Positions 1 to 41,225 of a stretch of DNA of 64,000 nt are shown one piece after another. Both the position numbers and the translations under genes were made by a program. This stretch comes from Verrucomicrobiaceae bacterium (lineage in GTDB: Bacteria; Verrucomicrobiota; Verrucomicrobiia; Verrucomicrobiales; Verrucomicrobiaceae). The notes under the pieces are model-generated. The model ran no database searches. It was given only the letters and a program-made list of their open reading frames with translations, and was not told where the DNA came from. Positions within the stretch are counted from its first letter, which is position 1; every line of letters begins with the position of its first letter. Location of the stretch: positions 7,708-71,707 of the forward strand of contig JAIBCL010000031.1 in assembly GCA_019694165.1 (NCBI GenBank), given 5' to 3'.

Positions 1-3000
1 GACGGCATCCTGTCAGGGAACAACACCTGGGTCTTTAAGAATGCCGGCACAACCACGCTCACCGGTGTGAACACCTTCAACACCGGCAACACCTACATCG
101 ACAAGGGCATCGTGGTGATGAACAACGCCTCCGGCACCGCCATGCAGGATGACAATGACATCCATGTCCTCCAGGGCGCCACCCTGCGCGCGGCCAATAC
201 CGAGACCATCGGCCAGCTCTACATGCAGCGCGGAGCCACGATGAACATCCTGGCGGGCGCGAATCTTACGGTGGACGACGGCAGCGCGCAGTTGATTGCG
301 GGGGCGATTACGGGGGCTGGGAATCTCACGCTATCTGGTACGCTCACCACGACGGGGCTGTTGGGCAATTATATGGCGATGTACGGCACCAACACACTTA
401 CCGGTGATGTTACCATTTTCAACAATGCCGGTATTCAGAGTCCTAATCTGACGAACGCGCTGGGATCCGCCGCATCCATCTTGCTCGGCAACGGAGGCAA
501 CATCGAGTACGTGGGTGCCGGTGAGACTTTCAACAAGGACATCTCACTGGTGTTCAGTGGAAATCGCATCACTGCCAACGGGACAGGAGCTCTCACGCTT
601 GCTGGCAAGATCACCGCTGCCAGCAGCGGCACCCTCCAGCTAACCGGTCAGACAGGAGGCTACTACAACCCGATCACCAACAAGATCACCGGCACCATCG
701 ACGAGGGGCCGTATTTCTTGGGGCTTGCGATGCCGGCAGTCAACAACGATGACCGATTTGGCGTTACCGGGCGCTGGGCTCTTACGAACAAGAACAACTA
801 CTTTTCAGGAGACATTACGGTCAATGTGGGCATCCTTGAGTTTGGCGGTGTGCTGAACGACGGTGGCCCGGGCCTGGGAGGTTTGGGAAATGGAAGTGGT
901 ACCACAAGTTCAATGGGCGACCTTGTCACGTTTACGCGTTTCATTGATCTCGGTACCGCGAGTTTCGATGGCCGCCGCTACGACGCCTTTGGCGGTGGCG
1001 ACCAGATCGGCGCCGTGGCAGTGGGCACGCCGACCAATGCGCTCACGCCAACGGGCTCGGTAGGCACCATTCTTTTCAATGATCCAAACTCCGGCGCCGC
1101 CACGCTCGGCTCGAACATCCGCTTCACCCAATCCTGGAGCAGCACCACGAATCCGGGCGCGGGCCAGATCATCAACGACGGCGCGAAGGTCATCGTCATC
1201 AACGGTGCCCTGACCTCCGGTGCCAGTGGTGACCGCAACTGGATACTCGACGGCTCCAACACGGGTGCCAACACCATCAACGGCGTCATTTCCAACGGCT
1301 CGGGCAACGTCGTGGGCATTCTCAAGGAAGGTGCCGGCACCTGGCGGTTGAATCAGGCGGCCAACACCTTCACGGGCACCGTGACCGTCGCGAACGGCAC
1401 GCTCCAGGTGGCCGGCGGCGGCGCGATCGGCGACTCCGCGCTCGTCGCCATCAGCGGCGCGGGTGCCGACGGCGTCTTCTCCGGCACGGCCATGTTCCAG
1501 GTGACGGCCAGCGAGACCATCGGCACGCTGACCGGCAACATCAACACATTCGCCTTCATCGAGAACGGCGTGACGCTGACCATCGCCGGCGGCAGCAGCA
1601 CCATGAACGGCAGCATCATCGGCCTCGGCGGCCTGACGCGCACCGTGTCCGGAAGCGCGGCGGGCACCCTGACCGCCACGGCCAGGAACTCATACAGCGG
1701 CCCCACCACCATCGGGGCCGTGGGTACTGCCACTGCCAGTGCCGGCATGACCGTTTACCACCTTGCCGACGGCGGCCTTCTGAGCGGCATTGGCTCATCA
1801 CCCAGTGCGGCATCGAATCTAGTGTTCGTCAGCAATACTGCGGCCAACCAAGGCGGCACCCTCACCTGGCAGGGCTTCAGCAGCCAGAGCACGGACCGTC
1901 TTTTCACCATGGGCCTCGGCACTCTCGCCGCCCGCATTGATGCCTCTGGCACCGTCATCGGGACGACAGCGCCGACGGTTGCCTTCAGCAACACCGGTGC
2001 CATCGCCATGGCGGGTTCCGGCACGCGCACGCTCACGCTTGGCGGCACCGCGATCAGCAACAACACCTTCCGTCCGCAGATCACCGACGGCGGCGGTGCC
2101 ACGACTCTGATCAAGACCGCTGCCGGCCTCTGGCTGCTCAATCCAGGCGCGGCCGGCAATACCTACACCGGTGGTACCACGATTTCCGGCGGCACACTGG
2201 CCATCCAGGCCGGCAATGCGCTCGGGACGAATACCGTCACGATCAATGGCGGCGCGGGTGTCGGCCTTGAGCTTCGCAATGGCATCACGCTGGGCAATGC
2301 CATCACCAACGTCACCGCCGACGGAGGAATCCGGGCGAGCAGCGGCACCAATGTCTTGAGCGGTACCGTCACGGCCACCAATCAGATTCGTCTGGTGGTG
2401 GATGCCGGTGCGTCCATCGAACTGAACAATGGCACCACCTCCCTCACGGGCGCCGGTCCGCTGCTGAAGTTTGGCGAGGGCAACCTGATCCTCTCCGGCG
2501 TCAACAACGCCACCGGTGCCACGACGGTGCGCGGCGGCGTGCTGGTGCTCGACTACCTCACAAACAACACCACCAAACTCGCCGACGGGGCCGCCCTCAC
2601 GCTTGGCGGTTCAGGCGGTCTTACCACGGTCGGCGTGGACGACAACGTCGCCGGTCAGACCTATGTCCTGGGCACCACGGGCGGCACCGTTCGGCTCAAG
2701 GACGGCAGCCACACCGAAGTGGTCTCCGCCACCACTCTTTCGCAGGGGGCCAATGCCGTCACACGCGTGAGCGGCACCTCGGTGCTGCGCATGAACACCG
2801 TCACCCGCAATGCCGGGGCCACCATCGACTTCGGTGCCGCCAGCATCGCTCAGACGGACAACAACAACACCAACGGCATCCTCGGCATCGGCTATGCCAC
2901 GGTCGCCAAGACCGACTGGGCCACCAGCGTGACGTCCGGTGCTGCGGACACGCCGGTCACCGCCTTCAGCGCGTACAGCACCGACAGCTACGGCGCCACG

Positions 3001-10785: not shown

Positions 10786-10796
10786 AAGCGTTTGCC

Positions 10797-10833
10797 GGCC
10801 GGGTCGGAACGCGCGCCCGGCCCGGTTTGTCTG
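10797..10833 (+). terminator. Putative intrinsic terminator after giant gene A
   Basis: GC stem GGCCGGG (10797-10803) pairs with CCCGGCC (10816-10822), 12-nt loop, followed by CCGGTTTGTCTG with a modest T-run. It starts 12 nt after the stop codon. The T-tract is weak. Confidence 0.3.
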
Positions 10834-10891
10834 ACACCTATTCCATCGAGTCAAGCGTCCGCCTTACCGTCTCCATCCTGCCACAGCCTGT

Positions 10892-16800: not shown

Positions 16801-19800
16801 GGCCACTTATGATCTTGGCAACGGCACCGACATCAGCGGCAGCGCCACCATCGCCGAGGGCATCTTCTTGAAGGGCGGCACGCTGCGGGACAACACCACC
16901 ACCGCCGCCCAGACGGCGCACACGGGAGTGCTCGGGCTGCTCGGGGCGACGAATACGCTCGCATCCGTGACCGCCACGGACCGCTTCCGCATCCAGTCTC
17001 AGATTCTAGGCATGCCCGACACTTCGGCCTCCGCCGGCGCGCAACCGGCAGGTCTGGTGGTCGGCGGTGCCGGCATCACGAGCATCGAAAACGTGGCCAA
17101 CCAGGTTTTCGGCACCGTGACGATCAACAATGGCGCGACGCTGAGCGTGGGTGATGCGGTGGCCGGCTCCGCTGGCACGCTCGGCGGGCGGATGGACATC
17201 ATCGACAACGGCACGTTGAGCTACAGCAGCAACGACGCGCACCTCGTGGTGGGAAATGCAATCTCTGGCAGCGGCGTGCTCCGCGTTCTGCGCAACAACG
17301 TTTATCTCACCGCAAACAACACCGTTTCCGGCGGCACCACGGTCGGTAGTCTCACCACCGGCACCGTCACCGATGGCGTGGTCCTGAACATCGGCAATGA
17401 TACTTACACAGGAAGCGCGGGCACGGGAACGCTCACGCTCCAGGCACCCACGGATGCGAGCGTGAACGTGCGTACCCACCGCAACGACGACATCACGATC
17501 AGCAGTCTGGTGCTCAATCCCAACAATCCGTCCGGCACGGCGCGCAACGCGACTTTCTTCCGCGCGGGACTCGGTTCGGTCACTCTCGGGAACATCACGG
17601 TAGGGCAAACCGCCACGCCTGGCGGCACACAGCGTGCCATCGTCCAGACCGACGCAGGCGGGAAGCTGAACTTCAGCGGTACGCTGACCGCCGGTGCGAA
17701 CAACCTGATGAACATCGTGAACAACAATGCCGTGGCCTTCACCGGCAGCGCCAGCAACACCTACGACGGCGTTCTATCGGGCAACAACGTCTGGGCCTTT
17801 GGCAACACTGGCACCACCACGCTCACCGGAGTGAACACGTTCAACACCACGGCCTACCTCCAGCGCGGCACCCTGGTGATGAACAACAGCCTCGGCACCG
17901 CCATGAACGATGACGTGGACGTCCAGGTGCTGCGCGGCACCACGCTGCAGGCAAACACGTTCGAAACCATCGGCGCGCTCTACACTCAGAAAGGCGGCAC
18001 CGTCAGTGTTGCCGCCGGCCAGCGGCTGACGATGGATGACAACACAAACCAGGCGAACTGGGGAACGTTGACCGGCGCGGGCGACATCAAGTTCGATGCC
18101 ACGGGCGGTGCCGCATGGTACACCCTGCTGCAGAACAACAACACCTTCAGCGGCAAGCCCGTCATCGGCAGCAGTTCACAGATCAGCTCGGTACAGGTGA
18201 CCAGCCTGACCAATGCCGGCCTGCCCAGTTCGCTGGGCACCGGGTCGGTGATCGCGCTGGGCCAGCCCTACAGTGCGCAGGAAGCCCGCCTGGAGTACAT
18301 CGGCGCCGGCAGCACCACCAACCGCACCATCGAACTCGGCGGCGGCCTCGTGACCTCGCTCGCGAAGACGACCGGCGGCGCCACCACGAGCAGCACCACG
18401 TTGACCTTGACCGATGTGACCAATGTGGCTGTCGGCATGATCATCTCGGGCACGGGCATCACGGCGGGCACCAAGATCACGGCCATCGACGTGCCCAGCA
18501 AGACGCTGACCCTCGACACTGCGGCCACGGTTGCCGCCGCTGCCGCGGTGAATTTCTTTGCGGCCACCAAGACCTCGGGCACCGCCATCACGAACTCGAC
18601 CACCATCCCGATTGCCGATACGTCGGGCCTCGCCACCGGCATGTTCGTTCAAGGTACCGGGATTCAGGTTGGGTCGAAGATCACCTCGGTGGGCGCCAGT
18701 TCCATCACCATCGACAATCCGGCCACCGTAGCCGCCGCTGCCGCCTTGAGCTTTTACTCGGTCTTCACCCCGAGTGCCACGGCCACCACGCTGCGCATCG
18801 AGGCCGGCGGCACCGGGCCGCTGGTGCTCAATGGCCCGATCAATGCCGTGAGCGAGGGCCCCAAGATTCTCGTCCTCCACGGCCAGAACGCCGACGCCAA
18901 CACGATCAATGGTGTCATCAATCAGACTTACCTCGGCTCCGGCTCGCTGTCGATCAACGTCAATCCCAACGTCGCTGACGATGACCGCTACGGTTTTGGC
19001 CGCTGGGTCCTGACCAACGGCGGCAACAATTTCAGTGGCAACACGACCCTGACCACCGGCACGCTCGAATTGAAGGGTGACCTCAAGACCGGCGTGGAAA
19101 CCACCAGCGTGTTTGGCGACCTCAGCGCCACGCGGCAGATTTCGATGGGCATCGCCGGCTTCAACGGCCGGCGCTATGACAATCAGGGCGGCGGTGACAA
19201 CCTCGGCGCGGCAGCGAACGTCGGCTCCATGGGCACGTTGGTCTTCAACGATCCCAATCCCGGGACGGCCACTCTCGGGCCGAACATCACCTTCTTCTCC
19301 GCCTCCAACAGCACCACCAATCCCGGCCGCGCGCAGATCGTCAACGACGGCACGAAGGTGATCGTGCTGCAGGGGAACTTCACCGCCGCCAACGCCGGCG
19401 CGCGCGCATGGACCCTCGACGGCACCAATACCGGCATCAACACCATCAGCGGCATCATCTCGGATACGGCCAATGACGGTGAGTCCGTGTCCATCATCAA
19501 GGAAGGCATCGGCACTTGGCGGCTGAGCGGTGCGAACACCTTCGAGGGTGGCGTCACCATCACACGCGGTGTTTTGCAGGTTGCCGGCGGTACCGCGCTT
19601 AACGACGCTGCGACCGTTACGGTCAGCGATGCGGGTGCGGACGGCCTTGCGACGATCAATCACGGCACTTTCCAGGTAGTCACCTCGGAGACGATCGGCG
19701 AGCTCGCCGGCAACATCGGGGCCACCACGATCATTGATGCGGGGCAGACGCTCACCTTGGCTGGTACCAGCGGCACGTTCAGCGGCGTCATCACCGGTGG

Positions 19801-22800
19801 CGGTGGCATCACCAAGACGGTGACGACCATCAACGGTGCCACCTCGGCCGGGACGCTCACGGTTCCGAACCTGAACACCTACACAGGTCCCACCCAGATC
19901 GGTACGCATGTCGTGTCCGCCATTCCAGGGGCCTCGTTTACGGCGGGGGCAGCATCAACGGTGTCTGTGGTCTATCTGGCCAATGGCGGCCAGCCCAGCG
20001 GCATCGGTGCGTCGAGCAATGCGGCGGCGAATCTCATCTTGAGCAATGGCGCAAATACCAGCGGCGGCCTGAATTGGACCGGCTTCACCAACCAGTCCAC
20101 CGACCGCCTCTTCACGATGGGCACGGGTGTCGGTGCGGCGACGATTACGGCGAACGGCACTGTCGTGGGAACCAATGCACCGGCGCTGACCTTCAGCAAC
20201 ACAGGGGCCATCGCCTTCCTGGCGACGAACCAAACCGGCACGCTCCAACTCGGCGGCGGCACGATCAGCGACAACACGTTCAGCCCACAGATCACCAACA
20301 ACGGCAGCAGCGCCATTTCCGTGTCGAAGATCGACGCCGGCATGTGGTTGATGACAAATTCCACCAGCTCGTACACCGGTGGCACAATCATCAATGCCGG
20401 CACGCTCGCCGTGACCGCCGGTGGTGCCCTCGGCACGGGCAACGTGGCCATCCGCGGCGGCGCGGGCAACGGCCTCCAGCTTCGCGGCGGTGTGACTTTG
20501 GCCAACAACATCGACTATTCACCTTTCTCCACTTCAACCTCCGACGGCGGGATCGGTGCCACGGGCGGCGGCGTGAACACGATCAGCGGCACACTCGCGT
20601 TCAACCAGACCAACGGCGGCACGCCAGGTGCGGCGGCCAGCGCCGTGCTGAGCAACTTCCGCATCGGCGTGGATGCGGGCACCACGCTGGACTTCACCGG
20701 CAAATGGACCGGCGCGGGCATCTCGGGCACCAATGGGACGGGCACCATCACGAAGTTCGGCCCCGGCACGCTCACGCTCTCTGGCGCGAACGACTACATC
20801 GCCGGCAACATCACCGTGGCCGGCGGCACTTTGAAGCTGAACTACGCAGCGCAGAACAACAGCAAGTTGGTGGACAGCGGCACCCTCACCCTCGGCGGAG
20901 CGGGTGCGTTCACCGGCCTCGGGGTGGACGACAACGTGGCGGGTCAGTCGAACGTCACCGGACTTTCCGGAGGTCGGGTGACTCTGAGCGGAGCAGCCAA
21001 TCACGCCGAGATCGTCGGCGCGACCACCGTCGGCATCGGCTCGAACTCGGTGACGCGGGACGCCGGCAGCAGCGCGTTGCTGCACCTCAACGCCATCAGC
21101 CGCAGTGTCGGCGGCACGCTGGATGTCGGTGCGGCCGGCTTTGGCATCACGGACACGACGAACAGCACCGCCGGCATTCTCGGCGGCTGGGCCACGGTCG
21201 GCAAGACGGACTGGGCCGTGACCGCAGGTGCCTTGAGCATCGGTTCGGTCGCGTGGACGACGGGGACGAACACCATCAGCACCGGAGCGCTCCCGAACGG
21301 GACACCCATTGAGTTTTCCGGCAACATCCCCAACGGCCTTGTGGGCGGGAAGCTCTACTTCATCGTGAACAACACCGGGGCCACCAGCCAGGTTTCGCTC
21401 ACGGTCGGCGGTACGCCGGAAACCATCACCGCGAGCGGATCGAACGGGACCATCGACCGCCGCGCATTCATCACCGCGTTGCCCGCAGCCGGTTACAACA
21501 ACGGCCTGGCCACGGACACCTACGGGCTGAACTTCAACACCGACGTCATCAACTTCACCACGCCCACGGACGTGGACGTGACTCCAGGGGTGATCACGAA
21601 CACCATGCGCTTCAATCAGGCCGGCACCCACACGCTGACGCTGACGGATGATCTCTTCCTGCAAACAGGCGGCATCCTCGTCACGCCGAATTCCGGCAAT
21701 GTGACCATTGCGGGCGCCACCCTTCAAAACAATGCCACCGGCGGCGGCCTGGAGGCGGTGGTCATCCAGCAGCACAGCGCCAACGGGCTGCAGATCGACT
21801 CCGTGATCCAGAACAACCAGACTTCCTTCCCCCTCGTGAATGCCCAGGGCATCACCAAGTCCGGCACGGGCAAGGTGATTCTCAACGCCATCAACACCTA
21901 CACCGGCACCATCAACCTGAACGAAGGCGAGCTTCAGGTCGGCGGCACCCTCGCCGCGCCGGGCACTCCCACCAATGCCATGCTCGGCGGCGGCAACAAC
22001 GCGCTGAACATTGCACAGGGCGCGCAGCTCACCGTCAACTCATCGAACCCGTCCGCCCTCGACCTCGGCACCATCCAGGGCGGCGGCAATATCGTGACCA
22101 CGGCGGCGAACACGCAGCCGCTGCTTCTCGACGGCGCGAATGGCAACTGGACCGGTGAACTGACGGTGGGAGCCAATACGTTGCTGCGCGTGGCCACTGA
22201 CAACAACGCCCTCGGCAGCAACCGCGGGCGCACCACTCTGGCCAGCGGCGTGGTGATGCAGATCGAGGACGCACGCTCGCTCAATGAACTCATCACCTTC
22301 GGCACCACGAACACCGTGCGTATCCTCGCCGCCCTTGCGCAGGACACCACGAACGCCGTCACGCTCAGCGGCGTGCTCACCTTCAACAACACCTCGGCAG
22401 CCGGCCTCGTCTTCGATACGCAGATCGGGGCGCTGAACACCAGCTCATCCCTCACGCTGTCCGGATTGCTCCAGGGATCCAACGGCTTTACCAAGACCGG
22501 TGCAGGGCTGCTTACCATCAGCGGGAACAATTTCACCGACGCCATCGCCGGCACCACGGCCATTAACAAGACGCCTTCGCTCTTCGGCCAGATCCGCATC
22601 AATGAGGGCGAGCTGCGCATCGGCAATGCACGGGCCTTGGGCGCCACGGGCGTGGGCAACGAGACCGTCATCGCCAGCGGCGCATCCTTCGACCTCCGCG
22701 GCAATTCCCTGAACTTCGGTGACGACGACAACCCGACGCGCGAGATCATCAGCATCGCCGGCACCGGCCTCAACGGCCAGGGTGCGCTGCGCAACTCCAC

Positions 22801-25800
22801 GGGCACGGCGAACTTCTCGAATCTCCAGCTCACTGGCAACGCCACCATCAGCGGCGGCGGCTTCGCCAACGGCTCCATCCTCAGCCTGACCACCTACGAC
22901 ACGAACACCAACAATGGCTCCACGCTCGATGGCAACTTCACCCGCGTGCGTCCCACCATCAACGGCGGTGGATTTGATCTCACGATCTTCGGCGGCCGCA
23001 TGCAGGACAGCGTGATCCTCCAGGATCCGTCCTTCACATCCGCGCTGAACAAGATCGTCATCCGCGAGGGTGGCCTGCGCATCGACAAGGCGGTCGGGCC
23101 GGTGTCCACCTTCTCCGGCATCACGGCGGCCAATGTGACCAACGGCATCGAGATCGGCTACGGTGGCGCGGGCCTTGCCGACCTGCTCACGCCGGCGGCG
23201 GGCGTCGGCCCCAACGTCGGTGCGCGTCTGAATCTGCTCAACAACTGGGACGTCCATCACACCGTCGCGATCACAATGAACGGCGTGCTCGCCGCCGCGA
23301 ACAACGGCGTGAACTACATCGACACATCGGCGGCCACCATCCCGAGTTCGCGCACCTATCTGGATGGTGCCATCACGCTTAGCGGCGCCGCCATGCGGAA
23401 CGTCTTCAACATCGACTCCGCCACCTCGAACAACACGGTGACCGAGCAGGGGAACCTCACCGCCTCGCTCCAGAGCAAGCTCATCGTCGGCGGTGCCATC
23501 GGCGGCTCCGGCGGCTTCACGAAGACCGGCTTCCGCGAGCTGCGCCTCACGAACAACAACACCTTCTCGGGCGACCTCAACGTTCTCCGCTTCGGCTTCA
23601 CCTCCGTGCCCTGGCAGACGAACACGGTCAACGTCAATGGCGTGGACTACCTCACCTTGGGTGATGCCGAGGGCTGGTCCGAGTACGGCCTCACGCTCAG
23701 CGGCCAAAACGGCGCGGTGTCCGGCACCGGAAATATCAACCTCGAGCGCCGCGGCATGATCACTCTGGACAACACCACGCGCCTCGACCTCACCTCACTG
23801 GTGACGGGCGGCAACAACAACGACCGCATCAACGACGCCGCGAACATCCTGCTCAATCACGGCTGGCTGCGCATCATCGGCGGCACGGTGGACAACACCG
23901 AGTCCCTGGCCACCGCTTTCGGCGCGAAGGTGCAGGTGCAGTCCGGCACGAACATCCTCGACCTGCTGCCCACCGAGGGCGCGGGCGCGAGCATGACGCT
24001 CACCATCGGCGAGATCAGCCGTTCGGCGGGTGGTGTGCTGCGCCTCGTGGATCTGGATTCCACCTCCACTTTCAGCACCGCCGGCGGCGCGGACAGCGTG
24101 CGCGTGGCGCTCGGGTCCATCGGCACGCTCGCACAAACTGGCGCGGGCACGGGCGCGACGGACAAGAACGTGGTCATCGGTCTCTTCGGCGGCATCATCC
24201 CGCATACGATGGGTGATGACACCCGCCTGCTGGCCTTCAACAACGGCAATGCCGCCGATCCGCTCAATCAGCAGCGCAATCTCCAGTTCATCTCCGGCTC
24301 GCACTTCATGACCTATGACGGCGGCTTCCTCCGGCCGCTGGACGACTCGGAGTACTTCACTCCTTCCGACGGCCTCATCTCCACCGCGAACGGTGCGGCA
24401 GGCCAGAACGTGAACCTCACGGACATCCTCAGCCTTGAGAACGGGAGCACCTTGATCAATGCGCTGCGCTTCGGTCCGGCGGCCGACAACAACGGATCCG
24501 GTGGCGCGATCAACTCCGGCACGAAACTCACCGACTACACGCAGGGGCACGTCGTGCAGCTTGGCATCGACGGCACGCTCTCCATTGCCTCCGGCATGAT
24601 CAGCAGCGCCTACTTCACGGTGGGGAACTCCGCCGACCTGCGCACCATCACCTTCGGCGGCAGCATCGATTTCGGCAGCAGCGAGGCCATCATAAACAAC
24701 CAGAACGGCATGGTGAACCTGACCAACGGTGCCATCACCAACGGCAACTTCGAAATCCGCTCGAACATCCTCGGCACCGGCGGACTCACCAAGACCGGCC
24801 CGAGCCAGGTCGTGCTCGACGGCGCGAACACCTACACCGGAGTGACGACCATCAGCGACGGTGCGATCTTCGGACGCAATGGCAAGAGCAGCTTCGGCGC
24901 GAGCGGCGCGGGCAACGGCATCGTCGTCACCGGCAACGGTTCCTTGAACACCGGCAGCGGCATGAGAGTCGGCTCCGTCGCGCAGCCAGAGGACATCCTT
25001 GTGAAGGCCCTCCAGGGCAGCCAGGCTGTGATGGGGGTAAATGACGACCTCACGAATTGGTACGGCGACCTGATCATCGACAACGTGGACGCCGCCCGAC
25101 AGGTGCTCTTCACGCCGGTCGTCAGCTTCGGTACCGGCGCCACCTACCTCATGAACGGTGACATCTACGGCGGCACCAGCCCCGTGGTCAGCGACATCAA
25201 CGCCATCGACTCCCGCCTCGTGCAGTTTAACGGCGGCACCAACAGCACCTTCATCATGCGCGGCCAGATTGGCGACCGCGGCGTGGCCGGCGCTCCCGTG
25301 CCCATTGCCGATCCCATCTCCACGCTCCCTACGCTGGCCGGCACCCGCACCAACGAGAACGAAGTCCTCCGCGTGAACCTGACCGGAAATGGCGAGACAA
25401 ACTTCATCCTCGACCGTCAGTACAATGCCGCGGGCCGCCTGACGACCATCGCCGGCTTCATGCTCGTGAACTACGATCCCGCCGCCGCCGGCAATGACGG
25501 CACTGGTTTCTGGACAAACACGGCCATCAGCAAGATTCCGAATGCCGACTCGAACAACACGACCTTTGCGCTCAATGGCAGCACTTCGCAGCAGGGCTTC
25601 GCGCTCAGTGGCGACGTGAATTCGGGCGTGTTCCTGATGCGTGCGGGCCAGTCCTTCAACATGTCGAACTGGATATCCGCCTCGGGCGGAAACGGCACCA
25701 AATACATCGGCGGCCTGAACGAGTCCGGCACCGTGACCTATGGCAATGGATTCGGCAGCCTGGCCATCAGCGGTCTCGCCGCCCAGCTCTACGCGGCGGC

Positions 25801-28800
25801 CGGCGGCACGGTGGTCTTTGACCAGCGCATGACCGGCTCCCCCGGCACCGCACCGAACAACGTGGGCATCATCAAGATTGGCCGCGGCACCGTCACGCTC
25901 ATGAACGACGGTCTGGCCGCCGCCTCGGACGCGAATTTCTTCCTCGCTGGCGGCACGTTGCTTCTTGACCACACCACCGTCAACCTCGCCCGCGTGGGCA
26001 GCCAGACCACCACCTTCGCCGGCGGCACGCTCTACTCACTGCCGCACGAGAGCTTCCCTTCCACGGCAAATCTGGCGACGAACAATGCATCGAGCGTCAT
26101 CGCCCGCTTCAACACCGGCGGCTCCGAGATCGTGGCGGAAGCGGCCAACGGGCGGAACATGCTCATCAGCATAGGCAACAACAATGCCAACAACAACGGG
26201 GCCAACCTCACGCGTCAGCAGGGCGCGACGGTGAACTTTGTCGAATACCAGAGCGGTCCGAGCGGTGTGCCGCAGATCACGCTTGAATTCAATGCCTTCA
26301 CCACGGCCGCGATGAAGAATCGTGTGATCTCCTGGGCCACCTACGGCACCGCGCCGCGCACGGCCGTTGACTTCGCCATGTCTGATGCTGCCGCCATCGT
26401 CGGCAGCGTCACGGCCAATGACGTGCGTGCTTTCGGCCGCCCGGCGGATGAGTATGTGAATGACGTGTCCCAGTGGACCACGGGCATCGATGTCTCCGAG
26501 TTCGGCCCCGGCTACTTCGGCACCATCGGCACGTCCGTGGCCGTGAACACCCTGCGATTTGACACGCCCGGAGACGGTGCGGTGACCATTGCCGCCGGCC
26601 AGAAGCTCTCCTTGATCGGGGACCAGGTGACCGGCGGCGTGCTCGTGGACTCGAATGTCGGAAGCTCCAACAAGAGCATCACCGGCGGAGCCATCGACGC
26701 CGCAGTGGTGCAGTTCACCGGTGATATCAAGTTCCTCAAGAACTACACCGGTACGCTGGCCAGCGGCAGCAACACCATCACTGCCGTCTCCGCTACTGAC
26801 GGATTGGTCGTGGGCATGCCGATTACGGGCACGGGCATTCCTGCCAACGCCACCATCACCGCCATCAATTCGGGTGCAGGGACCATCACGATGTCTGCCA
26901 ACGCTACTGCGGGCGGCAGTTCTGTGGCGCTGACTACTGATCCGGCTGACAATCTCATTTACAATGTCTCGTCCACGGCCAACCTCACTGTGGGTGCTCC
27001 CATCACCGGTGTGGGCTTGGCCGCGAACACGACGATCACCGCCATCAATGGCAGCACGCTCACGATTTCCGCTGATGCGACTTCCACCGTAGCGGCCGGT
27101 GGCATCGCGGCGGTCACGCCCGAAATCGTGTTTCACCAGTATGGGACCGGCAAGCTGATCGTGAACTCGAATGTGGGAATGGCACCGCTCGCACTCACGA
27201 GCGGAGCCACCACGAGCGGCTCTGCGAACGTGTCTGTCGCCTCCACCGCGGGTCTCGTCCCGGGTCTGGCGGTCACTGGAACGGGCATTCCCGCCAATAC
27301 GACGATCATCAAGGTCGTGGATGCCACCAACCTGGTCCTCAGTGCCAATGCCACGGCCACCGGCACGGGCCTTACGTTGACCGGCTACTCCGCCTCCGAC
27401 GTTGCCATCACCGGTCCGTCCACCACGACTCCATCTACCATCGGCACGTCGGGTGCCGTCGTGCTGGCGAATCCGCAGAACGGCTTTACCGGCAGACTCA
27501 TGATCGGCGGCGCGGCGGTCGAGTTTTCCGATGTCGGAGCGCTCGGCGTGAATCCCGCCTCCAGCGTCACCAATCAGATCACCATCAATGGCGGCACGCT
27601 CCGCTACACCGGCACGGGCTACGCAGACCTGCTCAACCGCGGCGTTCGCGTCGAGGGCAACGGCGCCGTCATCGACGTCATCGACTCCAACGGCGAACTG
27701 CGCATCTCCGGTGACCTGAATTCCGCCGGTACTTTCCGCGGCGATCTCGTCAAGGTAGGCACCGGCACCCTCACCCTCGGGGCCACGAACAACGCCAACT
27801 TCGGCGGCCTTCTCGACATCCGGCAAGGCACGCTCCGCCTCGCTGAAGTGGGCACCGCCGCGCCCGGCACGACGACGATCATGGGCAGCAATATCAGTTA
27901 CGCCGACGGCACCATCTTCCGCACCGGCGCTGACTTCGCCATCCAGATGGGCAATGGCAACAACGCCGGCGACTTTACGATGGAAGAGTGGATCACGTTT
28001 GAGGGCACGAACTACGTGACCGTGGGCACCATCAGCGCCAACGCAAACAACGTCACCAATTTCGCGAATCCCGGCAGCGCCCGCGGCATCAACCTCCAGG
28101 GCGTGCTGAGCGTCAACGGGCCGATCACCATCGACACGGTGAACACCCAGATCCTCCGCCTGAACAACGCCGCCGGCTACATGACCGGCAGCGGCGACAT
28201 CACCAAGGACGGGCAGGGGACGCTCGAATTCCGCGGCAATACGCCCGACTGGACCGGCTCGCTGAACATCAAGCAGGGCACGGTGCTCGTGGCGAACCAG
28301 GCCGATGCGCTCGGCACCGGCTATCTGACGAACAAGACCATCACGCTGGGCAGCAACGAGCGTCAGGGTGTGGCCTCCCTGCTCATCTCAAATCCGGACA
28401 ACATCCAGAACCACGTCTTCGAGGTGAACAACCCCATCAACGTCGTGTACAGCCGCGCGCAGACCAAGCGCATCGGCATCGACAACATCTCCAACGGCGA
28501 CACCGTGAACTTCAACGGCGACATCACGGTGAATGACAACCTCATCCTGCTTATGCGCGACACCACCATCAGCGCCGGCGGCGAGCAGGCATACGTGAAC
28601 TTCAACGGCAAGTTCAAGGACGGTGCCGTTACCGGCGGCAACATCGTCGTGCAGACCGATGACTCCGACACCACCGCGAACAACCTCACCAACGGACGCA
28701 CCTACGGCTACGCCCTGCTCAACGCCGACAACAGCGCATGGACTGGCGACCTCACCATCAGCACCAACCTCACCTACAACCAGGACAACACCGCCATCGT

Positions 28801-29914
28801 CCGCCTCAACCACGCCACCGCGCTCACCGCGGCCAACGACGTGACGATGAACTTCAATTCCATCCTCCAGGTCGGCGGCGGCGCGCGCGCCATCGGCTCG
28901 CTCACCACGCAGGGCGGCACAGGTCCATTCTTCGGCGATGCAGGCACCATGTCCGCCAGCACGAATGGCAGCAGCGAGATCATCGAAAATGCGGCCTCCG
29001 CCATCGGCACGCTCACGATAAACCAGACCACGCCTGCCGCCGTGGAGAACGTGTGGGACGCCAAGTTCCGCGACGGCACGCTCAACAGCGCCTTCCTCGC
29101 GCCCGGTGCCAACACAAGCCAGCCTTCCGCCGCGCTGAACCTCGTGAAGGCCGGCGGCGGCTGGGCCACCCTCACGCTCGACAACGACTACACCGGCACG
29201 ACCACTGTGGCGGCTGGCATTTTGCAAGTGGGCAAAAACAACGTGGGTGACACCGGGGCGCCCAATGCCGCCGGCCTCACCGTGAACGCCGCCGCCACGC
29301 TCGCCGGTACGGGCATCGTGAACGGCAATGCCGTCGTGCAGACCGGCGCAAATCTCCAGCCAGGCGACTTGGCCGGTGCGCTCATGGGCACGCTCACGTT
29401 TAATGGCAATGCTACCCTGCAGACCGGCTCGATCACCACCCTTCAAGCCCAGCGTGCCACCTACAACCATCCGGGCTTCACCAGCGGCACCGGTTACATG
29501 GGCTGGCTGGGCGCCATCCCGGGCGACTCCTACTCGAATGTCCTGAGTGATCCCGTGCTCACCACCCAGCATGACATGATCAATGTCCTCGGCGCACTCA
29601 CCTGGAGCACAGGCGCCAAGATTGTGGTCACCAACAACGGCTATACGCCCAGCGTCGGTGACGTTTTCGACCTCTTGGACTGGTTCAGCGTCGTCGGTTC
29701 GATCAACGTGGGATCACAGTTCCGCACCGGTACGGAAACCGGCACCGACCTTGATCTGTTCGAGCTTGGCGGTGACTACCGCTGGGACACCACCCTGTTC
29801 AATTCCAACGGCATCCTTGTCGTCACCATTCCGGGCGTCATTCCCGAGCCTGGCCGTGCGATGCTGGTCTTCGGCGGCCTGCTCGGACTCTTCTTCCGAC
29901 GCCGTCGTCGTTAA
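10892..29914 (+). CDS. Giant PEP-CTERM surface protein, paralog B (6340 aa). N-terminal signal peptide, autotransporter-associated beta-strand repeat arrays, C-terminal PEP-CTERM anchor.
   Basis: N-terminus MNILRKHRAALASLMLLATLFWSTFGYA is a typical Sec signal peptide. C-terminus is IPEPGRAMLVFGGLLGLFFRRRRR (PEP-CTERM). Residues from about 2290 to the end are colinear with gene A and roughly half identical by eye. Single uninterrupted ORF of 19 kb. Confidence 0.88.
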   Translation: MNILRKHRAALASLMLLATLFWSTFGYADTLYKTNSGSNTYLNVPYSTLGSPLPFNLTYGEGVAISAADILAFNNIVNVASTFRVGAAANDSISLNGISMGDADGAVTISNGFVTSGSDILGLTQTIKIGSGGIDLSKAVNNLTIGTEGTTAQGGVLTAASGSLGFSTLADQTWTIRNNRTLTFTNTPIALANNVTVSFVGGNTGGTVGNVAVNGNISGSGNLTLTGQNGGSGGVVTLYGDNSSWTGGASISGGSRLNLEYTGTQNKLNNSGTVAINRGTLNLQGTGSGTEIVGGLTLGQGLNQMSRSSGSVVLQVGPITSTAAGAGLNLGNIGTTASNSFLITSNPVTKGTLGSNLVAINALSGIDWVKTVVYTPPTGPNESRVVALSSGDYTTQNNLNNWTNPNQNILINGATTAGAAAPPTTTTIANLKVAHATLPGTQITANIGTGNTLMLNDGNNGGGIIRNQNGATVIGNLAGIGDSNLTAGGADDNTNDTLNLWNVQNTMTIHSLIVDNNLGGGTGALHLFTGGAGNVRLTADNTYSGGTTIAAGTLTLGANTLESDAANAGTGPITNFGTLLIDKTSTSVTALLNNISGTGSLTVSRGSVELDGTNTFTGDLNIGAGATVVAGTATALSSDSRVVMNAASGILDLAAMTVSPTIAALSGTQGTASVSIAAAQTLTLSGSDKARPGVNDSVLSATPQAYQGGITGAGGLVKNGVFNQQFSGAGVLSYTGATIINAGTIETTKAFATSGITVNGSGALISNVTNVVGGSVPVNLAGSASSWTIGAGFNQTVGSLVGVAGSRVITGAGANLTIGNNTGSAKTFSGVISGAGNVVISAASPVEFTGGNNYSGTTTVNQGILRVGATSQQEVLPDATAVTLANTAGVALDLNGRPETIGSLAGGGASGGNVTLGATGTLTMGGNNGTTTYGGVISGGTAGTTVITKTGNGTLTLSGTNTFAGNVIIRGTGGGLTLSGGTALADTVGVHNTGTGTTLTIIGNESLGPVTGGAGTTLALGASTLTSSYTNSAPANVAVSTADTDATVRVVKNINTAGLAPGQLITAASGITNAGSYIVQILNGDSILINQLPGAAATDIATVAVTTAGVLGSQVTGTTGGFVKTGPGLMILSGSNTFNGSITINDGTLRAGGGIWTGSKYAIQDTLGDGSPVIFPATGLQVLEFAVNATNLAPYERVPSISGGSTGGGTLAGTGPFTGSYINLSPTAGSTATAVALAVGNGNTDFTYNGNIGGLVGTLLVKEGSGLFTWNNGAGDSSISNFAGTLLIDAGKVTVGGATGMQSTSTLQMQNNSTIFTSTVTDGIGILSGGAGVTRPFANGQVGALAGNYISGVAPSLVINTGTTFTTNSTTNSAFNGVISGAGGFTKAGTSVFELRGAASYTGATTVSAGTLRLGSFGAATGLGAPGSGGFGSLATGTSLTLTASGATFDLNNATQSVTQIIGGTSGSTVAVGSGSLTFSAQTTQSSSTAFTSNANGVLNINGSGNLTLAVAQPGYSGRINIGTGQTLTLGAGGTNAARVNLATGATFALGASQSGTIGSLSGSGTLSVPTATFGLTVNQGGGLGSGAFSGAITGAGFLTVQDGSLKLAGNNTSTGGLNLTRGTLFLDYSTGATNIVPNTGALTLSGGMLLLKGNNTGDSAASTTLNAGASFIGAPAGDGSRLNLGAITRTVAGGTLQVMGNGTGSGAATSNAAGFIGGYATFGSSYLAESWAVSNGAAAAITALPLGSYVGTWSGTNHTDVNSSISATGTTQTVRFNANAANTITLTGNATVSSGGILLTENVGNNPSTITTGGAFTLAGNGTDLIVHQYNAYNSLLLDVVLASGGLTTAGPGTVILPRDQTATGAVAIGAGGKLQVGSGGTTGTLPTGAVTLLGVLDFNRSNAATVANSLTGGGWLIQEGAGALTLSGASASFSGRISVKNGSIIITRNTSVGSTLSGVAGISSVESGATYDLGNGTDISGSATIAEGIFLKGGTLRDNTTTAAQTAHTGVLGLLGATNTLASVTATDRFRIQSQILGMPDTSASAGAQPAGLVVGGAGITSIENVANQVFGTVTINNGATLSVGDAVAGSAGTLGGRMDIIDNGTLSYSSNDAHLVVGNAISGSGVLRVLRNNVYLTANNTVSGGTTVGSLTTGTVTDGVVLNIGNDTYTGSAGTGTLTLQAPTDASVNVRTHRNDDITISSLVLNPNNPSGTARNATFFRAGLGSVTLGNITVGQTATPGGTQRAIVQTDAGGKLNFSGTLTAGANNLMNIVNNNAVAFTGSASNTYDGVLSGNNVWAFGNTGTTTLTGVNTFNTTAYLQRGTLVMNNSLGTAMNDDVDVQVLRGTTLQANTFETIGALYTQKGGTVSVAAGQRLTMDDNTNQANWGTLTGAGDIKFDATGGAAWYTLLQNNNTFSGKPVIGSSSQISSVQVTSLTNAGLPSSLGTGSVIALGQPYSAQEARLEYIGAGSTTNRTIELGGGLVTSLAKTTGGATTSSTTLTLTDVTNVAVGMIISGTGITAGTKITAIDVPSKTLTLDTAATVAAAAAVNFFAATKTSGTAITNSTTIPIADTSGLATGMFVQGTGIQVGSKITSVGASSITIDNPATVAAAAALSFYSVFTPSATATTLRIEAGGTGPLVLNGPINAVSEGPKILVLHGQNADANTINGVINQTYLGSGSLSINVNPNVADDDRYGFGRWVLTNGGNNFSGNTTLTTGTLELKGDLKTGVETTSVFGDLSATRQISMGIAGFNGRRYDNQGGGDNLGAAANVGSMGTLVFNDPNPGTATLGPNITFFSASNSTTNPGRAQIVNDGTKVIVLQGNFTAANAGARAWTLDGTNTGINTISGIISDTANDGESVSIIKEGIGTWRLSGANTFEGGVTITRGVLQVAGGTALNDAATVTVSDAGADGLATINHGTFQVVTSETIGELAGNIGATTIIDAGQTLTLAGTSGTFSGVITGGGGITKTVTTINGATSAGTLTVPNLNTYTGPTQIGTHVVSAIPGASFTAGAASTVSVVYLANGGQPSGIGASSNAAANLILSNGANTSGGLNWTGFTNQSTDRLFTMGTGVGAATITANGTVVGTNAPALTFSNTGAIAFLATNQTGTLQLGGGTISDNTFSPQITNNGSSAISVSKIDAGMWLMTNSTSSYTGGTIINAGTLAVTAGGALGTGNVAIRGGAGNGLQLRGGVTLANNIDYSPFSTSTSDGGIGATGGGVNTISGTLAFNQTNGGTPGAAASAVLSNFRIGVDAGTTLDFTGKWTGAGISGTNGTGTITKFGPGTLTLSGANDYIAGNITVAGGTLKLNYAAQNNSKLVDSGTLTLGGAGAFTGLGVDDNVAGQSNVTGLSGGRVTLSGAANHAEIVGATTVGIGSNSVTRDAGSSALLHLNAISRSVGGTLDVGAAGFGITDTTNSTAGILGGWATVGKTDWAVTAGALSIGSVAWTTGTNTISTGALPNGTPIEFSGNIPNGLVGGKLYFIVNNTGATSQVSLTVGGTPETITASGSNGTIDRRAFITALPAAGYNNGLATDTYGLNFNTDVINFTTPTDVDVTPGVITNTMRFNQAGTHTLTLTDDLFLQTGGILVTPNSGNVTIAGATLQNNATGGGLEAVVIQQHSANGLQIDSVIQNNQTSFPLVNAQGITKSGTGKVILNAINTYTGTINLNEGELQVGGTLAAPGTPTNAMLGGGNNALNIAQGAQLTVNSSNPSALDLGTIQGGGNIVTTAANTQPLLLDGANGNWTGELTVGANTLLRVATDNNALGSNRGRTTLASGVVMQIEDARSLNELITFGTTNTVRILAALAQDTTNAVTLSGVLTFNNTSAAGLVFDTQIGALNTSSSLTLSGLLQGSNGFTKTGAGLLTISGNNFTDAIAGTTAINKTPSLFGQIRINEGELRIGNARALGATGVGNETVIASGASFDLRGNSLNFGDDDNPTREIISIAGTGLNGQGALRNSTGTANFSNLQLTGNATISGGGFANGSILSLTTYDTNTNNGSTLDGNFTRVRPTINGGGFDLTIFGGRMQDSVILQDPSFTSALNKIVIREGGLRIDKAVGPVSTFSGITAANVTNGIEIGYGGAGLADLLTPAAGVGPNVGARLNLLNNWDVHHTVAITMNGVLAAANNGVNYIDTSAATIPSSRTYLDGAITLSGAAMRNVFNIDSATSNNTVTEQGNLTASLQSKLIVGGAIGGSGGFTKTGFRELRLTNNNTFSGDLNVLRFGFTSVPWQTNTVNVNGVDYLTLGDAEGWSEYGLTLSGQNGAVSGTGNINLERRGMITLDNTTRLDLTSLVTGGNNNDRINDAANILLNHGWLRIIGGTVDNTESLATAFGAKVQVQSGTNILDLLPTEGAGASMTLTIGEISRSAGGVLRLVDLDSTSTFSTAGGADSVRVALGSIGTLAQTGAGTGATDKNVVIGLFGGIIPHTMGDDTRLLAFNNGNAADPLNQQRNLQFISGSHFMTYDGGFLRPLDDSEYFTPSDGLISTANGAAGQNVNLTDILSLENGSTLINALRFGPAADNNGSGGAINSGTKLTDYTQGHVVQLGIDGTLSIASGMISSAYFTVGNSADLRTITFGGSIDFGSSEAIINNQNGMVNLTNGAITNGNFEIRSNILGTGGLTKTGPSQVVLDGANTYTGVTTISDGAIFGRNGKSSFGASGAGNGIVVTGNGSLNTGSGMRVGSVAQPEDILVKALQGSQAVMGVNDDLTNWYGDLIIDNVDAARQVLFTPVVSFGTGATYLMNGDIYGGTSPVVSDINAIDSRLVQFNGGTNSTFIMRGQIGDRGVAGAPVPIADPISTLPTLAGTRTNENEVLRVNLTGNGETNFILDRQYNAAGRLTTIAGFMLVNYDPAAAGNDGTGFWTNTAISKIPNADSNNTTFALNGSTSQQGFALSGDVNSGVFLMRAGQSFNMSNWISASGGNGTKYIGGLNESGTVTYGNGFGSLAISGLAAQLYAAAGGTVVFDQRMTGSPGTAPNNVGIIKIGRGTVTLMNDGLAAASDANFFLAGGTLLLDHTTVNLARVGSQTTTFAGGTLYSLPHESFPSTANLATNNASSVIARFNTGGSEIVAEAANGRNMLISIGNNNANNNGANLTRQQGATVNFVEYQSGPSGVPQITLEFNAFTTAAMKNRVISWATYGTAPRTAVDFAMSDAAAIVGSVTANDVRAFGRPADEYVNDVSQWTTGIDVSEFGPGYFGTIGTSVAVNTLRFDTPGDGAVTIAAGQKLSLIGDQVTGGVLVDSNVGSSNKSITGGAIDAAVVQFTGDIKFLKNYTGTLASGSNTITAVSATDGLVVGMPITGTGIPANATITAINSGAGTITMSANATAGGSSVALTTDPADNLIYNVSSTANLTVGAPITGVGLAANTTITAINGSTLTISADATSTVAAGGIAAVTPEIVFHQYGTGKLIVNSNVGMAPLALTSGATTSGSANVSVASTAGLVPGLAVTGTGIPANTTIIKVVDATNLVLSANATATGTGLTLTGYSASDVAITGPSTTTPSTIGTSGAVVLANPQNGFTGRLMIGGAAVEFSDVGALGVNPASSVTNQITINGGTLRYTGTGYADLLNRGVRVEGNGAVIDVIDSNGELRISGDLNSAGTFRGDLVKVGTGTLTLGATNNANFGGLLDIRQGTLRLAEVGTAAPGTTTIMGSNISYADGTIFRTGADFAIQMGNGNNAGDFTMEEWITFEGTNYVTVGTISANANNVTNFANPGSARGINLQGVLSVNGPITIDTVNTQILRLNNAAGYMTGSGDITKDGQGTLEFRGNTPDWTGSLNIKQGTVLVANQADALGTGYLTNKTITLGSNERQGVASLLISNPDNIQNHVFEVNNPINVVYSRAQTKRIGIDNISNGDTVNFNGDITVNDNLILLMRDTTISAGGEQAYVNFNGKFKDGAVTGGNIVVQTDDSDTTANNLTNGRTYGYALLNADNSAWTGDLTISTNLTYNQDNTAIVRLNHATALTAANDVTMNFNSILQVGGGARAIGSLTTQGGTGPFFGDAGTMSASTNGSSEIIENAASAIGTLTINQTTPAAVENVWDAKFRDGTLNSAFLAPGANTSQPSAALNLVKAGGGWATLTLDNDYTGTTTVAAGILQVGKNNVGDTGAPNAAGLTVNAAATLAGTGIVNGNAVVQTGANLQPGDLAGALMGTLTFNGNATLQTGSITTLQAQRATYNHPGFTSGTGYMGWLGAIPGDSYSNVLSDPVLTTQHDMINVLGALTWSTGAKIVVTNNGYTPSVGDVFDLLDWFSVVGSINVGSQFRTGTETGTDLDLFELGGDYRWDTTLFNSNGILVVTIPGVIPEPGRAMLVFGGLLGLFFRRRRR
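18400..18760 (+). repeat. Two copies of a ~50-aa G-TGI-x-TKIT-x-I ... TL-x-D-x-AATVAAAAA repeat, present only in paralog B
   Basis: VTNVAVGMIISGTGITAGTKITAIDVPSKTLTLDTAATVAAAAAVNFF and TTIPIADTSGLATGMFVQGTGIQVGSKITSVGASSITIDNPATVAAAAALSF. There is no counterpart in the aligned part of gene A. Confidence 0.6.
26750..27400 (+). repeat. Three further copies of the same ~50-aa G-TGIPANTTITAIN ... TL-x-SANAT repeat, inserted in B relative to A
   Basis: VVGMPITGTGIPANATITAINSGAGTITMSANATAGG; TVGAPITGVGLAANTTITAINGSTLTISADATSTVAAGG; VPGLAVTGTGIPANTTIIKVVDATNLVLSANATATGTG. Gene A goes directly from ...FRGTLVTETVNSVHFD... to the downstream beta-strand repeats without this block. Confidence 0.6.
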
Positions 29915-30096
29915 CTCAGAACGGGACAGGCAGGCTGCGGAGCGGACGGGAGCTGCGGACGGCGGTCCGTTTGACGGACTCGCTGAAAAGCAGAAGTCGC
30001 AATTGAGTGGCCGGCCCGATACTTCCATGTATCCGGTGTCGTTCGTGGTTCCTCATGCCTGGATTTGGGCTGAGTTCGGCCGCCGCCCCTCGTCCT

Positions 30097-31932: not shown

Positions 31933-31946
31933 TCAGGGCGGCGGTT

Positions 31947-32741
31947 TCACGCTCCGCAGCCGATCTCCAGCACGCGCTTCAGGCCTCTCTTGCCGAGCTG
32001 CCAGACGGAAGTGGCGGCACCTTCGTAGTATTTGGAGTGGACGATGATCTCCAGCTTGCCATCACCGTCGAGATCGAGGAGGCCGGTGACTTCGTAGCGG
32101 TTCGGCGCATTGAACTCCTTCGGGGTCGGATAGAATTCGCCTTCGACAAGGCTGGTATGCAGCTTGCCGCCGACGACGCGACGCAGGAGGACGAAAGAGT
32201 AGTTGCCCGCCGAGGCACTGGTCACCATGCCGCCTTGCTTGTCCGGGTAGTGCGTGGCGCTGAGCAGCACTTCGTCTTCGCCATCGCCTTCGAGATCGAC
32301 GCGGAGAATCTGGGTGATCTTCACGACGGGTCTTGCAATGCCCTGCGCGGCGAGGAAATCGGCGGCGGCTTTGATGTAAACGGGCTGCGAGGTATCCGTC
32401 TGCTTCGCCTTCCGCGGCGCGGGCTCCCATGGGGCTGACACGCCGATGAGCGGCTTGTCCGTTTCGGGTGTGATTTCGTGCATCCACACATCGGGGCAGA
32501 CATCAGGATCGGGCATCGCTTTGTCGGCCGTGATCGTACCCGCCTCGCCGCTGAGGCCGAAGAGTCGATACCGCACGCCGGTCTTCAGAGATTTGCCTGC
32601 CGCCTCGCTGTTCAGCCAGCCCGTCTTCGAATGTCCGCCGATGATGAAGCCTTCGGGCAGTTCGACGAACGATGCGAGATCGGCAGTGCGAGCTGTGGCC
32701 GTCGCGAGGCAGAGAAGGCAGATGAGCGGGAGCAGTTTCAT
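31947..32741 (-). CDS. Secreted hypothetical protein with FG-GAP/VCBS-like DxDGDG motifs
   Basis: Signal peptide MKLLPLICLLCLATATA. Two copies of a motif like DLEGDGEDEVLL and LDLDGDGKLEIIV, typical of FG-GAP Ca-binding beta-propeller blades. It converges on the ABC gene with a 14-nt gap. Confidence 0.6.
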   Translation of the reverse strand: MKLLPLICLLCLATATARTADLASFVELPEGFIIGGHSKTGWLNSEAAGKSLKTGVRYRLFGLSGEAGTITADKAMPDPDVCPDVWMHEITPETDKPLIGVSAPWEPAPRKAKQTDTSQPVYIKAAADFLAAQGIARPVVKITQILRVDLEGDGEDEVLLSATHYPDKQGGMVTSASAGNYSFVLLRRVVGGKLHTSLVEGEFYPTPKEFNAPNRYEVTGLLDLDGDGKLEIIVHSKYYEGAATSVWQLGKRGLKRVLEIGCGA

Positions 32742-32777
32742 GGCGGCCGCGAGAGGCGATTCTCTCTTTTGTCGCTT

Positions 32778-33341: not shown

Positions 33342-33663
33342 GGAATCGGCGGCGGCTCATGGGCCGCGTGCGCATTGATACCCGGGGATCAAGCGTCGGC
33401 CAAGGGAAGAATGGCATGTTGCGTTGCCCGGGGGCGGACCGTGCGCCGGACGGGATCCGTGATGCCGGTGCCGGCGCAGGAATCGGGGCAGCAGGGCCGC
33501 CAAGTTCGCTCGGCCATGCCCGGCATCGCAGCGGTCCGGGAGGCCATCCGTCAGTCTTCGTGCTTCGCTTTCATCCACTCTGGCAAATGGCGTTCAATTT
33601 CCCGCCGGCCTCGCCCCTTGCACTTGGCGGAGATGATGCCAAGAATGGCGCTCCCCCCAAGAA

Positions 33664-35598: not shown

Positions 35599-35775
35599 TC
35601 CGCCGCAGTTTGCCGGGTGTCGATGGCCGGCGGCAATTGCTTTTCCGTGGAGACATCCCGCAGACGTTCGCTCTGGCAGATGTGCAGACCGGGATTCGGT
35701 GGATCAAACGATGCAACTTGCCGGGAAGTGGTGTGCCACGAAGCGATGTGGCCTGACCGGCCTGGTCGGCAAGTT

Positions 35776-38498: not shown

Positions 38499-41225
<2,727 letters not shown>

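Follow-up and report, generated by a model that had tools for sequence, protein, structure and literature searches.

Organization of the locus

A 64,000-nucleotide (nt) stretch of a Verrucomicrobiaceae genome (GenBank assembly GCA_019694165.1, contig JAIBCL010000031.1, positions 7,708 to 71,707 of the forward strand), hereafter the window, carries on its plus strand three giant open reading frames (ORFs), A, B, and C. The first two lie head to tail and encode PATR-repeat proteins that end in PEP-CTERM sorting signals. They are very likely intact paralogs that arose by an ancient duplication and have since diverged independently, forming a stable pair rather than a device for recombination-based variation. 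Gene A (positions 1–10785, plus strand, frame 1) is open at its 5′ end, and the window holds its 3′ 3,594 codons and stop codon. A scan with hidden Markov models found its PATR repeats at 75 bits for PF12951 (8 stretches) and 118 bits for TIGR02601 (9 stretches). The C-terminus of A (GIVPEPGRMMLLVLGASALLFRRRRTS) bears the tripartite signal VPEPGRMMLLVLGASALLFRRRR, made up of a PEP motif (VPEP), a hydrophobic transmembrane helix, and a basic cluster (RRRR); the sorting signal occupies 10708–10776 on the plus strand, or residues 3570–3592 of 3594, and scores 18.4 bits against TIGR02595. Gene B (10892–29914, plus strand) is complete and encodes 6,340 amino acids (aa), the length also called by JGI on an identical contig. 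The same scan detected its repeats at 70 and 80 bits (PF12951/TIGR02601) in the head of the protein and at 88 bits (7 stretches) in the tail. Its C-terminus reads GVIPEPGRAMLVFGGLLGLFFRRRRR and contains the equivalent tripartite signal IPEPGRAMLVFGGLLGLFFRRRRR; here the sorting signal comprises the last 24 residues (29840–29911, plus strand) and scores 19.4 bits. Both scores lie above the curated PEP-CTERM cut-off of 16 bits for TIGR02595, in agreement with a preliminary description of the locus in which both genes ended in such a signal.

At its other end, gene B opens with MNILRKHRAALASLMLLATLFWSTFGYA/DT, a putative Sec signal peptide (10892–10975, plus strand) that was judged by inspection only; a homolog from a Prosthecobacter metagenome-assembled genome (MAG), L003, begins alike (...AQAYADTLYK). 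The Sec signal peptide earlier ascribed to B keeps the standing of a putative one. For gene A, the best guide to the part beyond the window is P0027, a 5,931-aa protein encoded on a 38.2-kb Logan contig and a full-length ortholog of A, 75.8% identical to it across all 3,594 visible residues (P0027 residues 2348–5931). P0027 has a hydrophobic stretch at its own N-terminus. The counterpart of the first visible residue of A sits 2,290–3,334 residues deep in every homolog, at residue 2,290 in L003, 2,348 in P0027, and 3,334 in the two longest relatives, L001 and L002. Almost certainly, therefore, gene A continues upstream, as had been suspected, and is, with P0027 as proxy, a gene of ~5,900–6,000 aa that begins ~7 kb (~2,350 codons) upstream of the window. 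Between A and B lies a spacer of 106 nts (10786–10891, plus strand), with a G+C-rich hairpin (10797–10822) followed by GGTTTG. A look for a consensus promoter or terminator in this spacer gave none, and the stability of the hairpin does not exceed that of shuffled sequence (z = +1.2); a promoter or terminator between the two genes was accordingly rejected.

A colinear duplication of about 12 kb

When A and B are compared by BLASTP, a single dominant diagonal emerges (A 89–3534, B 2539–6153) that scores 2,494 bits, against 360 bits for the top off-diagonal repeat match. The DNA behaves in the same manner: BLASTN returns five colinear segments of 63–74% identity that cover most of A, with just one off-diagonal match of 57 nts. 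The offsets of these segments climb stepwise (17764, 18169, 18544, 18580, and 19165), because B carries ~450 codons extra relative to A. Homology starts at nt 17765, in good agreement with the 17760 first given, and the part of B colinear with visible A (aa 2292–6340) spans 17765–29911 on the plus strand. In a global MAFFT alignment of A with this part, 56.9% of the 3,510 aligned columns are identical, and individual 150-column blocks fall between 42 and 72%; an out-of-register control, in which the head of B was aligned to A, reaches 28%. The preliminary view that the two head-to-tail PEP-CTERM genes share a diverged colinear duplication of ~12 kb is thus borne out by a continuous diagonal, not scattered short matches, at 57% aa and 64% nt identity.

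Codon-aligned nucleotide identity averages 64%, and third positions agree at only 52.5% with a third-position G+C content (GC3) of ~85%. Local identities of 80% or more, which had been reported for the pair, are real at a scale of ~100 nts, where they account for 2.5% of the windows (maximum 85% per 100 nts and 80% per 200 nts), but no window of 300 nts reaches that level. The longest exact matches measure 31, 26, and 25 bp, and neither tandem repeats nor near-identical dispersed repeats were found in positions 1–30000. The 31-bp match joins 29060–29090 to 9919–9949, and the Logan contig SRR1025216_39215 begins at 29061, at this shared stretch, as would fit a short-k-mer assembly that broke at the repeat.

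The extra codons of B (18338–18793, 21218–21505, and 26690–27388) consist mostly of a repeated ~35–50-aa module with the approximate consensus vGm.ItGTGIpanTtItaI....LtlsanAT, one copy of which is also present in L003. The first of these stretches (18338–18793, plus strand), a B-specific insertion when set against A, is built from copies of the short "GTGI..nTtItaI" module (family D9), and the last (26690–27388, plus strand) is a second cluster of B-specific insertions of the same module. Ahead of the colinear part, the head of B (aa 1–2291; 10892–17764, plus strand) has no counterpart of A inside the window. It is colinear with the head of L003 at 43.6% identity, and it matches the head of P0027, the proxy for the absent head of A, at 39.6%. 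Within the latter comparison, identity is ~50% at B aa 1625–2291 and fades to the repeat background (25–33%) across the initial ~700 residues. At their extreme N-termini P0027 and B differ, and B resembles L003 instead. The suggestion that B may duplicate all of A consequently holds for a stretch upstream of the visible homology, as far as the proxy can tell, but not for the first ~700 residues.

Independent divergence of the paralogs

The number of synonymous substitutions per synonymous site (dS) between A and B is ~0.9 overall and 0.5–1.3 in every 100-codon window, values near saturation at a GC3 of ~85% from which ages can be read as relative only; the ratio of nonsynonymous to synonymous divergence (dN/dS) is ~0.43. 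In neighbor-joining trees of nine sequences rooted with the distant homolog L008, A groups with P0027 at 100% bootstrap, while an exclusive grouping of A with B receives 0–7%. The duplication that gave rise to A and B occurred before the lineages of this organism and of the carrier of P0027 split, an event that corresponds to 24% amino-acid divergence in A.

That split provides a natural reference against which later exchange between A and B can be gauged. B is practically equidistant from A (identity 0.571) and from P0027 (0.565), and the difference stays within 0.03 in all 15 windows. Among 3,504 alignment columns, A and B agree against P0027 at 237 sites and P0027 and B agree against A at 222 (binomial p = 0.51), with no clustering of the former class in runs or in sliding windows (permutation p = 0.64–0.79). 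Since sites shared by A and B are neither in excess nor clustered, and since B is equally far from both orthologs, there has been no detectable exchange between A and B since the split. Both genes have diverged independently from that time onward under purifying selection, at a dN/dS of ~0.4. The pair shows neither the long identical or near-identical DNA tracts nor the signature of concerted evolution or exchange by which recombination-variable loci are recognized.

A family of giant proteins in Verrucomicrobiaceae

A and B belong to a family of giant (~5,900 to >7,200 aa), Gly/Thr/Asn-rich, cysteine-free PATR-repeat proteins of Verrucomicrobiaceae. Their own composition is 15% G, 13% T, 10% A, 9% N, and no cysteine. 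A search of genome contigs recovered no identical genome but three relatives at 56–57% identity (L001–L003), from MAGs labelled Prosthecobacter, Brevifollis, and "Planctomycetaceae". A metagenome scan, in which A and B themselves did not appear, added eight contigs with homologs (L004–L011); homolog fragments are labelled Prosthecobacter, Roseimicrobium, or Verrucomicrobiales. By its homologs, too, the organism most likely belongs to the Verrucomicrobiaceae. Overall, the homologs are 52–76% identical and colinear over thousands of residues. The full-length relatives reach 5,901 aa in L003, which is complete, at least 6,928 aa in L002, and more than 7,208 aa in L001, and an exhaustive search of representative proteins added further homologs of 5,900–7,400 aa. 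By comparison, word-indexed protein searches with A aa 1–500 and B aa 2292–2891 returned few fragments and missed P0027, so that negatives from such searches are not evidence of absence. A conserved C-terminal module (...RTGAETGTDLDLFELGG.YRWD.SLFN.QGI..V) unites the family.

What follows this module varies. In four of the metagenome contigs (L005, L007, L010, and L011) and four proteins (P0028 and P0030–P0032), the module that precedes PEP-CTERM is succeeded by an extension of ~1,000–1,200 aa, which has no Pfam or NCBIfam match and ends in a conserved "GYGYFL..qlP...". Conceivably the extension serves the family as another means of C-terminal anchoring or sorting, one not described so far. 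L001 (JAEUIN010000180.1) differs again: its 21.6-kb locus is one ORF of more than 7,208 codons without a stop, which runs >280 aa beyond the PEP-CTERM and stop position of its relatives into more repeat sequence. The record is labelled Planctomycetaceae, yet its nearest relatives here are of Verrucomicrobiaceae type (73% identical to L009). The locus thereby documents a family of ~6,000–7,000-aa PATR/PEP-CTERM proteins, probably fibrous, in Verrucomicrobiaceae, with what appear to be interchangeable C-terminal anchoring modules.

Genomic neighborhoods of the homologs speak to how common the tandem arrangement is. In none of the 11 relatives with visible flank (L002–L005 and L007–L013) does a second giant gene lie downstream of the stop of the homolog, and therefore the tandem pair is not widespread in the family. 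On the upstream side, the complete L003 gene is flanked by an integrase-like ORF instead of another giant gene. This 387-aa ORF (L003 1449–2612, minus strand; identified by inspection only) and small phage-like ORFs adjoin the 5,901-aa homolog, and the giant gene in L003 may neighbor an integrated element. No chimeric or copy-number variants were seen among the relatives examined. P0026, a fragment from a Prosthecobacter MAG, is more similar to B (789 bits) than to A (about 550 bits), and a B-type lineage therefore exists elsewhere.

Predicted fold, export, and function

Two segments modelled with AlphaFold2 came out as regular all-β structures, with predicted local distance difference test scores of 72 and 66 and predicted template modeling scores of 0.77 and 0.61. 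No sequence match was found in the PDB. Membership in the PATR family and the weak structural matches described below lead us to infer a β-solenoid fold, a surface location, and a likely role in adhesion or matrix interaction for both proteins. In the proposed pathway, each protein would be exported by Sec by means of its N-terminal signal peptide and would fold outside the cytoplasm into a very long β-solenoid fiber; an exosortase whose gene lies elsewhere in the genome would then process its C-terminal PEP-CTERM signal, yielding a fiber or adhesin associated with the surface or the matrix. That two very costly neighboring genes of ~6,000 aa have long been retained without loss of either reading frame implies a separate cell-surface function for each.

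Alternative explanations

In the preliminary description the locus was held to be a substrate for recombination-driven surface variation, that is, for gene conversion, unequal crossover, or deletion between the two copies, such that a surface structure would vary within populations at present. The head-to-tail, in-register colinearity across ~12 kb is what such a substrate would look like, as are the few short patches at 80–85% identity and the handful of exact matches of 25–31 bp. However, RecA-dependent recombination needs roughly 20–30 bp or more of identity and drops steeply with divergence, and here the DNA is on average 64% identical, lacks any 300-nt window at 80%, and has a dS of at least 0.5 in every window of that length. 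Known length-variable surface proteins depend on highly identical repeats (PMC9704523). Coupled with the even distribution of sites shared by A and B, the equality of A–B and P0027–B identities in every window, and the lack of chimeric or copy-number variants among the relatives examined, these observations make present-day recombination a very unlikely explanation, and the proposal of a variation device is not upheld. A regional mosaic in the phylogeny of B nevertheless points to the possibility that the two lineages exchanged sequence in the past. Over A aa 1–970 (1–2910, plus strand; B counterpart ~17765–21130), B branches outside A and all orthologs of A with bootstrap values of 81–100%, and quartet-informative sites favor this arrangement by 158 to 78. 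Over A aa 3145–3571 (9433–10713, plus strand; B counterpart ~28570–29850), B instead nests with A, P0027, and L004 at 100% bootstrap, and the quartet sites flip to 31 against 100. Conceivably, then, B has a chimeric origin or underwent partial conversion in the distant past: the proximal shared part (B aa ~2292–3400) would derive from an older paralog lineage, and the distal part, chiefly its final ~430 aa, which include the PEP-CTERM module, would have been copied from the A/P0027/L004 lineage by conversion or fusion. The B-like character of P0026 lies in the proximal region and fits this account. So does the finding that in this region A and B lie at the same distance from the outgroup L008. 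Faster evolution of B alone would not produce this result, and the view of B as merely a rapidly evolving sister of A was rejected here on that ground. On the other hand, the middle of the gene gives no resolved placement of B, the neighbor-joining and parsimony analyses were run on a repeat-rich alignment with one outgroup and with P0027 compared as protein only, and a similar pattern could arise from rate shifts confined to some regions or from errors in the alignment. An ancient exchange is thus a possibility of less than even standing, and one that would add to the picture of an old, stable pair instead of replacing it; the reading of the mosaic signal as recombination is tentative to the same degree or slightly more so. 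Doubtful to about the same degree is the reading in which the regional flip of B records real recombination between giant β-solenoid paralogs, with the distal part and PEP-CTERM module taken from the A lineage. If it holds, then together with the swappable C-termini of the family it would mean that 6,000-aa genes exchange multi-kilobase modules on evolutionary, not population, time scales. Even then the exchange is old, because dS in these regions is still 0.5–1.0.

The paralogs could be subfunctionalised partners, for instance expressed together as an operon, with a fiber that is heteromeric or has two specificities as the product; selection for this would explain why the tandem has been retained. 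In favor of this view are their placement on the same strand with a 106-nt spacer devoid of a consensus promoter or terminator, the intactness of both ORFs, the dN/dS of ~0.43, and the lineage-specific module insertions in B. Against these stand the G+C-rich hairpin after the stop of A and the 11 relatives that manage with a single gene at the locus, and we regard such a partnership as unlikely. An assembly artefact, in the form of a mis-join or duplicated scaffold end in a metagenome assembly, could in principle also generate a tandem. Two contigs of JGI metagenome 3300006092 match the window at 100% identity, one at positions 20097–34137 and the other at 34087–48449, and a Logan contig of SRR1025216 is identical to positions 29061–34148. 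The overlap between the JGI contigs is just 51 nts (34087–34137), which betrays a scaffolded or re-assembled source. Yet this join sits 4 kb downstream of B and not between A and B. The first of the two JGI contigs, Ga0082021_1106426 (41.8 kb; identical to 20097–34137), carries the complete 6,340-aa B and, from its coordinates, should span the A–B junction and reach ~7.6 kb upstream of window base 1. Moreover, copies that are only 64% identical can be neither produced nor collapsed by an assembler, all of which leaves an artefact extremely improbable.

Several considerations weigh against the preferred reading of A and B as an ancient, stable pair of exported paralogs, beginning with the near-saturation of dS already mentioned. 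The trees were built by neighbor joining from MAFFT-aligned sequences of a repetitive protein, L008 being the single outgroup, and the overall position of B in them is divided between 76% for B outside and 17% for B as sister of A and P0027. The N-terminus of A falls outside the window. The top Foldseek matches are all right-handed β-helices, among them Ag43, the IcsA autochaperone, IgA1 protease, PL6 lyases, and tailspikes, yet with E values of 0.003 or higher and low template modeling scores none of them is significant (all E > 0.001). No exosortase was found among the window ORFs scanned, and the export-and-sorting pathway is incomplete within the window. Finally, the material for strain-level comparison consists of identical contigs of one population only, and rare deletions or chimeras of A and B may occur within that population. 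With these points taken into account, an anciently duplicated pair that has diverged independently is still the most probable explanation. The negative result has a wider bearing: paralogs are not a variation device merely for being large and arranged in tandem, and in this case the copies are too diverged and show no exchange.

Genomic surroundings

The third giant gene of the window, C (47407–62838, plus strand), encodes ~5,130 aa and is unrelated to A and B. The first half of its product contains an FTP propeptide motif, a metallopeptidase domain of the M36 fungalysin type, and BACON/Ig-like domains, and the final ~2,600 aa have no Pfam or NCBIfam match; PEP-CTERM is lacking. Given its different domains (M36 peptidase and BACON) and the missing sorting signal, C was rejected as a member of the same group as A and B. 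Between B and C lie genes for an MsbA-like ABC exporter, a PurF-like amidotransferase, gyrA, gyrB, an SPFH protein, and msrA, and the presence of these housekeeping genes indicates that the region is chromosomal. Its G+C content is 60–68%, and no tRNA genes were found in the window. The ABC exporter (30097–31932) was considered as a dedicated exporter of B, for which no evidence was found; it is MsbA-like and stands amid housekeeping genes (gyrA, gyrB, msrA, and def).

Three plus-strand ORFs in this part of the window (31929–32438, 32478–33737, and 44337–46013) have no family matches. On the identical contig, JGI calls minus-strand genes at 31947–32741 (264 aa, no family) and 32778–33341 (peptide deformylase), and it calls a 558-aa gene without family at 44337–46013. 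Within the PurF-like gene (33664–35598), three independent assemblies, two JGI contigs and one Logan contig, break at 34087–34148. This coincidence suggests a repeat or strain heterogeneity at that point, and it shows that the window derives from joined or re-assembled sequence.

Comparison with known systems

A parallel to A and B is offered by the giant genes of the PVC superphylum (bioRxiv 10.1101/2023.11.21.568195), which are likewise very long, contain long β-helix regions, and have been proposed to act in adhesion. Those genes encode >30,000 aa as against 6,000 aa here, and A and B are without their dockerin, SecA, and peptidoglycan-degrading modules. The class nearest to the idea of a variable surface structure is that of the periscope proteins and other surface proteins whose length varies by means of repeats (PMC9704523). 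These are long fibrillar surface proteins, as A and B are predicted to be, but their highly identical tandem repeats are absent from the locus, whose two large copies are just 64% identical.

With the passengers of type Va autotransporters (Ag43, IcsA, Hap, and IgA1 protease), A and B have in common the PATR repeats and a predicted right-handed β-solenoid, and their best, though weak, structural matches fall on these passengers. A and B are 5–10 times longer, however, and would be anchored by PEP-CTERM instead of a barrel. The autotransporter β-domain, a C-terminal 12-stranded β-barrel translocator, gave no Pfam or NCBIfam match in either protein, and because this domain is missing, A and B are not classical autotransporters. 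The direct homologs are the PATR proteins (PF12951/TIGR02601) of Verrucomicrobiaceae, from Prosthecobacter, Brevifollis, and Roseimicrobium MAGs, which share the same C-terminal module; the head-to-tail pair sets this one genome apart from the 11 relatives with visible downstream flank.

Typical PEP-CTERM proteins are far smaller than the ~6,000 aa of A and B, and the cognate exosortase is not among the window ORFs scanned. In their architecture, by contrast, both proteins follow the substrates of the PEP-CTERM/exosortase system (TIGR02595; Haft et al.), whose pairing and tripartite organization are described in PMC3237569: the Pro-Glu-Pro motif, hydrophobic helix, and Arg cluster are present in A and B alike, and B adds a putative N-terminal signal peptide. 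PMC3237569 portrays PEP-CTERM as a swappable "suffix", and the family to which A and B belong behaves likewise, in that other members bear a different C-terminal end.

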